The position numbers and the translations under genes were made by a program. A model generated the notes under the pieces. The model saw only the letters and a list, made by a program, of their open reading frames with translations. It was not told the origin of the DNA and searched no databases. From Candidatus Microgenomatus sp. (GTDB lineage Bacteria; Patescibacteriota; Microgenomatia; UBA8517), in assembly GCA_020724585.1 (NCBI GenBank), contig DYGS01000001.1:674535-738534 (forward strand): a stretch of 64,000 nt of DNA. Reading direction: 5' to 3'. The stretch's first letter is position 1. Every line of letters starts with the position of its first letter. Positions 23,699 through 24,916 of this stretch are shown piece after piece.

Positions 23699-23780
23699 GG
23701 ACCCTTTACAAACAAATCAGTAACCAGCTTCGCTGTCAAACTAATTTCAAAAACGCACTGTCCTAGCTCCGGCCCCGCTT
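23699..23780. repeat. Left arm of an 82-bp near-perfect inverted repeat (81/82 identical to the right arm)
   Basis: 'ggaccctttacaaacaaatcagtaaccagcttcgctgtcaaactaatttcaaaaacgcactgtcctagctccggccccgctt'. Confidence 0.85.
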
Positions 23781-23841
23781 ACGCAGAGGCCTTAAGCTTT
23801 TTTGCGCACACGATTTGCTCAACTTTGCCGAGCAGTAAACA

Positions 23842-24588
23842 TCAAATTCTTGAATTCTTAAGTGTCGATAAGATTGTCTCGACAAGAATATTATTTTGTT
23901 CTGTTGAAGAATTAATTACATAAAAATAATCTTTTTGATTTGGAAAGACATAATCCTTTGGATCAATGGCAAGAAAATAATATTTATGTGTTCCAAGCCC
24001 TCTTGATTTGTATGTAAACCCTGAGTAACTACCTATAGAAACTGGTTTTGCCGTTTCTAGCACATCTCCAACTTCTTTTGAATTTGCAACTTCCTTTTCA
24101 ACAATCTGTTCCAAAGTCTGGGTTGTAGGATACTGGACTCTTTTTATTCTAAACTCAAACCCCGCAACTTCTTTGACACTATACTTATCAGGATTTGATT
24201 CATCAAACATTACAAAACGTGCATAGTTATCACTAGTTTCGCCATATGTAATATTTTTAGGGTGTTTTAATGTAAAACCATCAGCTCTAGATCCTGATTC
24301 GATCCAGTCACTTGTATCAATTAGGCTTGGTTGTTGAGATGATGGTACGGCAGTGGGTGTTGTGGATGGCAAAGTCGTATTGTTGTTTAACGACGTTTGT
24401 TTAGACAAGTTATTGCTCTGCTTTCCCAAAAAATAGCCACCAGCTCCAAAAACTAACGAGCAGATCAACCCAACAGCAAACATTGCAGTAAGATTGGCTC
24501 TAGGTTTATCTAAAACGGCTGGTTGTGCAACTGGGTTTTGGCCGACTGGTTGGGTGTTTTGATCTCCAATGTTTACTTGATTTTCCAT
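23842..24588 (-). CDS. Hypothetical secreted/membrane-anchored protein (248 aa from the internal ATG 'MENQVNIGD' with GGAG ribosome-binding site). The ORF track's longer form extends to 24681.
   Basis: N-terminal TM helix 'LTAMFAVGLICSLVFGAGGYFLG'. The whole gene lies between the 82-bp inverted repeats. Confidence 0.55.
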   Translation of the reverse strand: MENQVNIGDQNTQPVGQNPVAQPAVLDKPRANLTAMFAVGLICSLVFGAGGYFLGKQSNNLSKQTSLNNNTTLPSTTPTAVPSSQQPSLIDTSDWIESGSRADGFTLKHPKNITYGETSDNYARFVMFDESNPDKYSVKEVAGFEFRIKRVQYPTTQTLEQIVEKEVANSKEVGDVLETAKPVSIGSYSGFTYKSRGLGTHKYYFLAIDPKDYVFPNQKDYFYVINSSTEQNNILVETILSTLKNSRI

Positions 24589-24834
24589 ATTTATCTCCAA
24601 GAAAAAGTATAGCATTTTCATTTTAAAATTGGTATATTGATTTTGTACCCAGCTTTTCGATCGCTTTTTTGATGGCCGCATTGGACAATTCGAGCGATCG
24701 AGTTGGGTACAACCAGTGCGGCCATTTAAATTTTAGAACATAAGTTCGATTTTAAAAAAATCGTAACAATTTTTGCATTTTTCTTTTTAAGACAAAGGCA
24801 AATGTCCGAGCCGACTTTTGCGGAGAGCCAACGC

Positions 24835-24916
24835 GAAGCGGGGCCGGAGCTAGGACAATGCGTTTTTGAAATTAGTTTGACAGCGAAGCTGGTTACTGAT
24901 TTGTTTGTAAAGGGTC
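24835..24916. repeat. Right arm of the 82-bp inverted repeat
   Basis: Reverse complement equals the left arm except one C/T difference. Confidence 0.85.

Follow-up and report, generated by a model that had tools for sequence, protein, structure and literature searches.

Both the enzyme class of the large serine recombinases (LSRs) and the idea of integration targeted to transfer RNA (tRNA) genes are already known. Serine integrases usually target protein-coding genes, whereas tRNA targets are typical of tyrosine integrases. Bacteria of the candidate phyla radiation (CPR) have tiny genomes, and to our knowledge few mobile elements have been reported in them. Here we consider a 64,000-nt stretch of the Candidatus Microgenomatus sp. 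contig DYGS01000001.1 (positions 674,535 to 738,534; hereafter the window), in which a gene for a 248-aa protein, bracketed by two long and nearly identical inverted arms, lies inside the ribosomal RNA (rRNA) operon. Comparison with related loci leads us to regard this unit as probably the cargo module of an element that an LSR directs to tRNA 3′ ends, with arms that would be the recombination-site-bearing ends of that module, in a copy that is itself recombinase-less. Across the family, placement of the elements at tRNA 3′ ends is almost certainly the work of the LSR, and such a family of small tRNA-3′-end elements in Microgenomates is apparently undescribed.

Recombinase-linked inverted arms at tRNA 3′ ends

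The arms that bound the unit are as follows.

24836-24918, plus strand: upstream arm (IR-R, Y′), from a GC-rich hairpin head AAGCGGGGCCGGAGCTA... to an outward tail ...TTTGTTTGTAAAGGGTCCA that resembles a tRNA 3′ half
23698-23780, minus strand: downstream arm (IR-L, Y), same sequence as Y′, 3′ of the cargo gene

An 82-bp near-perfect inverted repeat had been described here in the initial annotation; the repeat is real, and we refine it to arms of 83 nt with 82/83 positions matching in inverted orientation, separated by 1055 nt. The lone difference is a C/T at position 23768 versus 24848, and similarity extends about 15 nt further inward with mismatches and one indel. This is by a wide margin the longest inverted repeat of the window; two 30-nt sub-patterns of the arm are confined to both arms within these 64 kb (0/100 shuffles matched), and the window holds no further copies of the arms or of the cassette motifs described below. 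No target-site duplication was found at the arm flanks, where the left arm is preceded by GTTCTCAT and the right arm is followed by AGAAATGG. An independent Logan assembly (SRR5011275) is 100% identical to the window from 23727 to 22190 and begins exactly 30 nt inside the left arm, which is the expected repeat break of a k=31 de Bruijn graph; a mis-assembly peculiar to the JGI contig is thus unlikely.

Related loci (designated by L numbers) were collected by two routes: the conserved N-terminus of the cargo protein, searched against GTDB species genomes, returned 37 loci across Microgenomates, and the arm core, searched against JGI metagenomes, returned 35 loci of which about a dozen are relevant. 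The closest named relative of the 248-aa protein is in a Candidatus Blackburnbacteria metagenome-assembled genome (MAG) (Microgenomates group, CPR). Independent assemblies that span at least five candidate phyla (Woese-, Gottesman-, Levy-, Shapiro- and Blackburnbacteria) repeat the layout, with long inverted arm pairs of 73-114 nt and 92-100% identity bracketing the cargo:

L039 (Woesebacteria): arms of 114 nt, 98% identical
L009 (Gottesmanbacteria): arms of 98 nt, 100% identical
L010 (Woesebacteria): arms of 75 nt, 99% identical
L040: arms of 52 + 31 nt, 96-97% identical
L059: arms of 85 nt, 98% identical
L063 (two pairs): arms of 78 and 110 nt, 97% and 92% identical
L076: arms of 73 nt, 99% identical
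L082: arms of 101 nt, 100% identical
L085: arms of 82 nt, 96% identical
L015 (Levybacteria) and L016 (Shapirobacteria): remnant arms of 31 and 25 nt, 94% and 84% identical

The repeat is therefore not the unique and invariant structure that the initial annotation had allowed it might prove to be: relatives are one-armed, or two-armed and accompanied by a recombinase, and their cargo varies. Arms share an anatomy: inside there are one or two GC-rich local hairpins, and outside a conserved tail, some 38 nt long (TTGAAATCAGTTCGAATTTGTTCGTAAAGAGTCCAC), which with its consensus ..GTTCGAATTTGTTCGTAAAGAGTCCAC is like a tRNA T-loop plus acceptor 3′ end. The window arms can be aligned over their full length with those of L059, L063, L076, L002, L062 and others, the upstream arm with the arms of 10 related loci, and the tail motif is recovered by an nhmmer profile made from other genomes.

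Arms evolve in concert, as is evident from lineage-specific changes common to both arms of a genome. In the window, the two arms have in common a 19-nt insertion and some six substitutions absent from all aligned relatives, and L059, L063 and L076 each have a private 10-nt variable segment that is identical in both arms. Cargo varies behind these ends: arms that are 85-90% alike enclose a MENQ-family protein in the window yet proteins of 229 + 81 aa in L076 and of 91 + 109 aa in L063, and in L081 a DUF5677 and a DUF5680 gene adjoin the recombinase module.

The recombinase itself, a protein of some 510-560 aa that combines Resolvase, Recombinase and Zn_ribbon_recom domains (PHROG 'integrase' phrog_95, E 3.6e-74), is encoded by a gene that adjoins the cassette or an arm tail in 13 loci comprising 14 elements (L009 twice, L031, L039, L059, L063, L076, L080, L081, L082, L084, L085, L086 and L087). 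It lies inside an inverted repeat pair of its own, X and X′, or beside a single X where the contig ends; in loci with both ends on the contig the pair is 95-115 nt long and 93-100% identical. The start of X falls within the final 4-8 nt of its tRNA gene, which may be Leu-GAG, Gln-UUG, Pro-GGG, Ile-GAU, Ile-UAU, Lys-CUU or Leu-UAG, and the second copy of X begins at the end of an arm tail that shares the same few nucleotides with the tRNA (GCAC, CAGCCA, CGACCA, CCAC). With an identical X after the tRNA 3′ end and after the tail, the tail-X and tRNA-X junctions look like attP-type and attL-type sites respectively. As in LSR elements generally, the two junctions have little in common, only 4-8 nt ahead of the identical X; the tail of the upstream window arm runs into a piece of X that comprises its initial 10-17 nt. 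Loci found via the recombinase (L080-L087) carry the same arms as those found via cargo or arm, so the association of LSR and arm is not a sampling artefact. At E values under 1e-30 the recombinase has more than 7,700 relatives, labelled only 'recombinase family protein' or 'DNA invertase Pin-like'.

The common layout, seen in 12 elements, reads tRNA / X - LSR (opposite strand) - X′ / Y′ - cargo - Y / flank, where slashes mark junctions. That is 12 of the 13 readable recombinase-bearing elements (L081 is unreadable); the only flipped one is L082, a single 3.3-kb contig in which LSR and cargo modules are both reversed relative to the tRNA. An N-terminal remnant of an LSR in L018 runs in the same direction as its tRNA.

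Elements sit at the same tRNA-Ile as in the window in L002, L062, L077 and L082, and the first 10-12 nt of the X stub of the window (AGAAATGGAG/AGAAATGGAT) follow the 3′ end of tRNA-Ile (GAU or UAU) in L002, L011, L062, L065 and L082, the tRNA copy in L062 being partial. Partial tRNA-Ile copies occur at this junction once in L062 and twice, in tandem, in L026, where positions 3486-3690 hold an intact tRNA-Ile, two tandem partial 3′-half copies and then X-type sequence; these tandem copies look like footprints of repeated insertion at one tRNA. The element of L063 lies just upstream of tRNA-Ala and 23S on a contig that ends before tRNA-Ile. Positions 1-4476 of that locus hold two recombinase-plus-cassette elements in tandem, the second recombinase cut to 188 aa, and end 433 nt upstream of tRNA-Ala and 23S, which has the appearance of accretion at the rRNA-spacer site that is also occupied in the window.

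One-armed relatives are informative as to which arm belongs to the gene. The Blackburnbacteria MAG (L002, protein 83% identical) has the gene at the same site between tRNA-Ile and tRNA-Ala with the downstream arm only, a toxin-antitoxin pair on the upstream side and different right-hand genes, and in each of L002, L007, L062, L065 and L077 the arm kept is the downstream one. The downstream arm is thus a regular 3′ feature of the gene, and the upstream arm an inverted second copy present in only some genomes. We had considered the position shared with L002 as proof of an old orthologous insertion, but dropped this reading, because the right-hand genes differ and site-specific insertion at tRNA-Ile can recur independently. 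We likewise no longer regard L006 as simply without a downstream arm: it has an upstream arm together with a 3′ end of another type (dnInner-upInner), as in L035, L033 and L023, and the MENQ gene is accordingly found with two kinds of 3′ end.

A recombinase scan of viral contigs returned one phage-like contig, L083 (IMG/VR UViG_3300025323_000028, 1-5341), which encodes a 43%-identical recombinase whose 3′ end shows the same AAAGTCGG.TCG.AC motif; some 1 kb further downstream there is an endolysin gene, and no arm was detectable on the contig. Given the viral contig and the endolysin, part of the recombinase family may be phage-borne.

Cassette organisation and its setting in the rRNA operon

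The unit sits in the 2.1 kb that separate tRNA-Ile and tRNA-Ala of the rRNA operon, which makes more exact the position between 16S and 23S given in the initial annotation. The remaining parts of the cassette and its surroundings are listed here.

24935-24992, minus strand: partial tRNA-Ile copy, anticodon loop to acceptor 3′ strand
24920-24936, plus strand: X stub AGAAATGGAGAGTGAGG, directly beyond the upstream-arm tail
24768-24818, minus strand: 5′ syntax motifs AAAGTCGGCTCGGAC (24818 to 24804) and GAAAAATGCAAAAATT (24783 to 24768)
24640-24725, minus strand: interleaved palindromes A-B-A′-B′, upstream of the cargo gene
24596-24614, minus strand: region with the extended -10-like TGCTATACT (24614 to 24606, read from the sequence), followed by a GGAGAT Shine-Dalgarno sequence and the ATG at 24588
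23842-24588, minus strand: cargo gene, 248 aa, same direction as the rRNA operon
23798-23834, minus strand: 3′ syntax, hairpin GCTCGGCAAAGTTGAGC, then AATCGTGTGCGCAAAAAA (family consensus AATCGCGCGCGCAAAAAA)
28697-30280, minus strand: 16S of the rRNA operon
24997-25071, minus strand: tRNA-Ile(GAU) of the operon, attachment target of related elements
22823-22896, minus strand: tRNA-Ala(UGC) of the operon
19484-22564, minus strand: 23S of the operon
17222-17358, minus strand: 5S of the operon, 2.1 kb away from 23S

The predicted 248-aa gene is present as annotated and is called as a gene on the source contig, which in JGI is a metagenome contig of 644 kb. Its product has a conserved N-terminus (MENQVN...QNTQPVGQNP...) and a single transmembrane helix (residues about 33-49), beyond which a Ser/Thr/Pro-rich linker leads to a variable extracytoplasmic domain. 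Neither it nor the neighbouring 81- and 84-aa proteins matched Pfam or PHROG. An AlphaFold2 model is of moderate quality (pLDDT 61.5), with a C-terminal domain similar to the PsbP/CyanoP, Apa, MTC28 and DcrB folds (Foldseek E about 1e-5, TM-score about 0.55), and from these matches we read the product, with low confidence, as a putative anchored extracytoplasmic protein.

LSR and cargo modules have short motifs in common, which amount to a cassette syntax: AAAGTCGGCTCGGAC by the inverted arm, GAAAAATGCAAAAATT before the gene (the family's recombinase genes included) and AATCGCGCGCGCAAAAAA after it. In the window each of the three occurs once, at its expected place and nowhere else; that the 5′ motifs act as a promoter is only a guess. 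The region of the extended -10-like TGCTATACT is conserved in L002, L005 and L007. A generic promoter and terminator scan of 22800-25600 gave no more sites than shuffles, with none inside the arms, and did not call TGCTATACT. We also considered the arm tail as a promoter of sigma-70 or extracytoplasmic-function type and rejected it, since the -10 positions are not conserved and the spacer is.

The palindromes upstream of the cargo gene, described initially as nested, are real but interleaved: A (ATGGCCGCACTGG) pairs with CCAATGCGGCCAT, and B (TTGTACCCA..TCGATCGC) pairs with GCGATCGA..TGGGTACAA. The same A-B-A′-B′ design, in differing sequences, stands upstream of 19 cargo genes (the window and 18 others, for example L062 298-384 and L076 1957-2041). 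In the 12 distinct sequences, pairing holds for 93.9% of cells, compared with 71% for shuffles and 23-39% with the partners slid; 13/22 pairs have changed on both sides, no change is one-sided, and 0/264 cells are G-U. Covariation of this kind without G-U suggests that the palindromes work at the DNA level, as hairpins, as a cruciform or as symmetric sites for protein, and not as a folded RNA, and from these alignments they may be an undescribed conserved structural or operator element acting at the DNA level.

Between the upstream arm and tRNA-Ile, the fragment first taken for a tRNA-like minihelix of acceptor and T-arm does exist, and is more than that: the comparison with tRNA 3′ halves proposed by the initial annotation shows that it matches tRNA-Ile(GAU), and only the 3′ half of that tRNA, over the stretch that begins in the anticodon loop and finishes at the acceptor end. 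In alignment, the tRNA-Ile of L062 is nearer to it than is the tRNA-Ile of the window. Neither ARAGORN nor Rfam, even at E<=5, recognised a tRNA in it; within 22500-28800, Rfam (gathering thresholds, and E<=5) placed nothing on the arms, the palindromes or this fragment.

Several neighbouring features deserve mention in their own right. Two open reading frames (ORFs) of 81 and 84 aa (23451-23696 and 23135-23389, both minus strand) lie between cassette and tRNA-Ala, without a homologue in any fetched locus, and the ATG of the former falls 2 nt past the arm tail. Just upstream of tRNA-Ala and 23S there are a strong promoter-like TTGACC-17-TATAAT (11/12; 23138 to 23110, minus strand) and a terminator-like hairpin with a T-run (22994 to 22976, minus strand); the insertion may have left the rRNA operon as two separately transcribed parts. 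A 708-aa ATPase (25492-27618, plus strand), encoded against the direction of the operon in the interval from 16S to tRNA-Ile, has DUF8128 (weak), DUF87/HerA, TrwB_AAD_bind and TraG-D_C domains (PHROG phrog_5156, E 3e-72), and homologues lie within about 1 kb of an element- or cassette-bearing tRNA-Ile in L014, L029, L077, L084 and L085. Three LAGLIDADG endonuclease ORFs (27867-28361, 18731-19351 and 17857-18312, all minus strand) stand just outside 16S and 23S as delimited by Rfam: the first is 3′ of 16S, the other two lie in the 23S-5S interval, and no group I intron was called. Low-complexity inserts occur in 23S (20877-20907, 21667-21713, 22107-22155) and 16S (29958-29990, 30162-30194), and resemble other window sequences of AAAAATCCAAAA type (48872-48920, 52260-52290, 55364-55394) and AGTACT type (12354-12384, 22750-22816).

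Origin of the window copy and rival explanations

We hypothesize that the ancestor of the window copy was a full element of the form partial tRNA / X - LSR - X′ / Y′ - cargo - Y, in which LSR and cargo modules would each lie within their own inverted-repeat pair (X or Y). One deletion across the X palindrome would have removed X, the recombinase and most of X′, leaving what is seen today: the tRNA-Ile 3′-half copy, a stub of X 10-17 nt long, and the cargo gene with its syntax motifs between the two Y arms. Excision and integration would proceed by LSR cutting at the tail-X junction, for which two models may be drawn. In one, tail-X would be an attP-type site and the whole composite would move, with the internal X′-Y′ joint as a second, inverted attP and L082 as its product; in the other, X-LSR-X′ would be a separate unit with a palindromic joint, inserting between a tRNA 3′ end and an inverted tail. 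Either model assumes gene conversion between the arms, or a replicative step, for the duplication of the arms and their identity, and we suppose that such conversion upholds the 99% identity of the window arms. As the window lacks a recombinase gene that is present in 13 loci with the same arms, its copy can only be a derivative or non-autonomous member of the family: either a fossil, or a non-autonomous cassette still open to a recombinase encoded elsewhere. Of the three interpretations offered in the initial annotation, the remnant of an element integrated into a tRNA fits, with arms homologous to LSR-linked cassette ends at tRNA 3′ ends; the non-autonomous transposable cassette fits in being non-autonomous, and not in having transposase-type terminal repeats; and an invertible segment finds no support at this locus.

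It is important to note a number of observations that weigh against this account. A tblastn search of the window with four family recombinases found no recombinase gene, and the top 120 LSR relatives include none on a contig as large as the source contig. The tRNA-Ile of the window is followed not by X but by CCAGCGAC and the partial tRNA copy, and the sequence to the right of the downstream arm, with the 81- and 84-aa ORFs, is unlike that of the relatives, which leaves the right insertion boundary undefined. Dyad symmetry is usual in classical serine-integrase sites, and none is obvious in the tail or the start of X. Among the assembled loci there were no empty sites, no tail-to-tail joints and no circular form; two tRNA-Leu(GAG) loci without an element (L025 and L042) have no flank in common with L009, and are thus uninformative on empty sites. 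Serine recombination, moreover, is conservative and cannot create or homogenise inverted repeats of 80-115 nt, so that duplication and identity of the arms need an extra process. Finally, all comparison loci are metagenome assemblies, in which repeat-rich regions can be mis-joined.

The strongest of the rival explanations, which we still consider unlikely, is that the segment actively inverts: RecA, or an LSR supplied in trans, would recombine the two arms and flip a cassette of promoter plus gene relative to the rRNA operon, with a change in expression, and conversion would keep the arms identical. Arms that evolve in concert in every genome imply exchange of DNA between them, L082 is an alternative isomer with both modules reversed relative to the tRNA, the remnant in L018 lies in the tRNA direction, and several relatives bear the JGI label 'DNA invertase Pin-like', to which may be added a weak match of the LSR to PHROG 'DNA invertase' (E 1.3e-17). 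Yet that isomer is one 3.3-kb contig set against 12 of 13 readable recombinase-bearing elements in a single relative orientation, and the X-adjacent arm is on the cargo promoter side in every close relative that retains X; the cassette appears to have promoter-like signals of its own, so that a flip need not change expression, and the window is without a recombinase. An RNA-level role seems to us more improbable again. The arms would form an 83-bp duplex in the transcript of the rRNA operon that loops out the mRNA and is cut by RNase III, as happens at the 16S and 23S stems, and indeed the unit lies within the operon in the same direction, the single arm mismatch would be a G-U pair in the sense transcript, and the downstream-arm region folds modestly better than shuffles (z -2.8). 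The upstream-arm region folds no better than shuffles (z -1.2, -0.6), however, and the same arm pairs occur outside rRNA operons and around recombinase genes on the strand opposite the tRNA, while one-armed relatives (L002, L007, L062) have the same gene. An identity of 92-100% with essentially no G-U variation is not expected from selection on RNA pairing, the palindromes are equally devoid of G-U, and the outer limits of the arms coincide with recombination-type junctions.

Two further explanations strike us as very improbable. A classical non-autonomous transposon, whether a miniature inverted-repeat transposable element (MITE) or a mobile insertion cassette (MIC), with ends bound by an insertion sequence (IS) transposase encoded elsewhere, would account for a passenger gene between long terminal inverted repeats with no transposase inside. 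The arms are not of transposase type, though: a target-site duplication and an IS element to match are both lacking, and on the outside the arms look like the 3′ ends of tRNAs. The window has no second copy, the neighbouring enzyme in relatives is a serine recombinase and not a DDE transposase, and insertions are always at tRNA 3′ ends or at tails like tRNA 3′ halves. A one-off neutral inverted duplication by template switching at a GC-rich hairpin, or an assembly artefact, either of them functionless, would agree with the single occurrence of the repeat in the window and with the GC-rich hairpins inside the arms, such hairpins being known hot spots of strand switching. This last explanation is already largely refuted by recurrence, as more than 10 independent assemblies, drawn from several phyla, show the same design while differing in arm sequence, and the break of the independent assembly inside the arm argues against an artefact.

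Returning to the LSR-driven element as the preferred explanation, it is tempting to speculate on a fuller version of it, which we hold possible but doubtful: an undescribed serine-recombinase cassette system of Microgenomates, comparable in function to integrons or to the 2-micron plasmid, in which modules would be inserted, stacked, swapped and sometimes flipped at tRNA 3′ ends, and in which the window cassette would be usable in trans. In any case, the family is widespread, and brings variable surface proteins and other small proteins next to tRNA genes and even into the rRNA operon. Its design, unusual for a serine recombinase, poses the question of how inverted arms arise and stay identical, and its members are a set of natural recombinase/site pairs open to direct testing. 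For annotation, it gives a reason why the 16S-23S spacer can contain protein genes and pieces of tRNA in these genomes.

Comparison with known systems

A full-text literature search found no description of the combined architecture, that is, a tRNA-3′-end serine recombinase, tRNA-like tails, concerted inverted arms and exchangeable cassettes with shared syntax. Individual components do have counterparts. With LSR elements and prophages (the phiC31, Bxb1 and A118 integrases, TnpX of Tn4451, Ccr of SCCmec) the family has in common the Resolvase, Recombinase and zinc-ribbon recombinase domains, a recombinase gene next to the junction, and a crossover identity between target and element of just a few nucleotides. 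Unlike those elements it targets the 3′ ends of many tRNA genes, it is tiny (about 2.8 kb between outer junctions in L009, 2166-4947), and each of its two genes lies within near-identical inverted arms of 75-115 nt, so that the site-bearing region is duplicated in inverted orientation. The tRNA islands of tyrosine integrases are alike in their insertion at tRNA 3′ ends, in partial tRNA copies at their borders and in tandem accretion (compare L063 and L026); they differ in recombinase family, and where they have a long direct repeat of the tRNA 3′ end at the far end, the elements described here have a tRNA-3′-half-like tail at the arm ends instead.

Integrons (IntI, attC) offer a parallel of another kind, with a recombinase gene beside small cassettes of exchangeable cargo and hairpin-rich ends that vary in sequence while keeping their architecture. 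The cassettes of this family do not belong among them, since the recombinase is a serine and not a tyrosine enzyme (the attC core pattern was not put to a formal test); they also have inverted arms at both ends and 5′ and 3′ motifs of their own, and no attI or common promoter Pc was identified in the family. MICs and MITEs similarly have a passenger gene between inverted repeats and no enzyme of their own inside, whereas the present elements lack a target-site duplication, have arms that are not IS ends, and are site-specific at tRNA 3′ ends. In overall geometry there is a likeness to the yeast 2-micron plasmid (FLP/FRT): if excised, an element would be a small circle on which two inverted repeats part two unique segments, one of them encoding the recombinase, and it too has two isomers, represented by the common layout and by L082. 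No circle was observed, however, and in contrast to the plasmid these elements are bacterial, integrated at tRNA genes and served by a serine recombinase, with repeats of about 100-200 bp against 599 bp.

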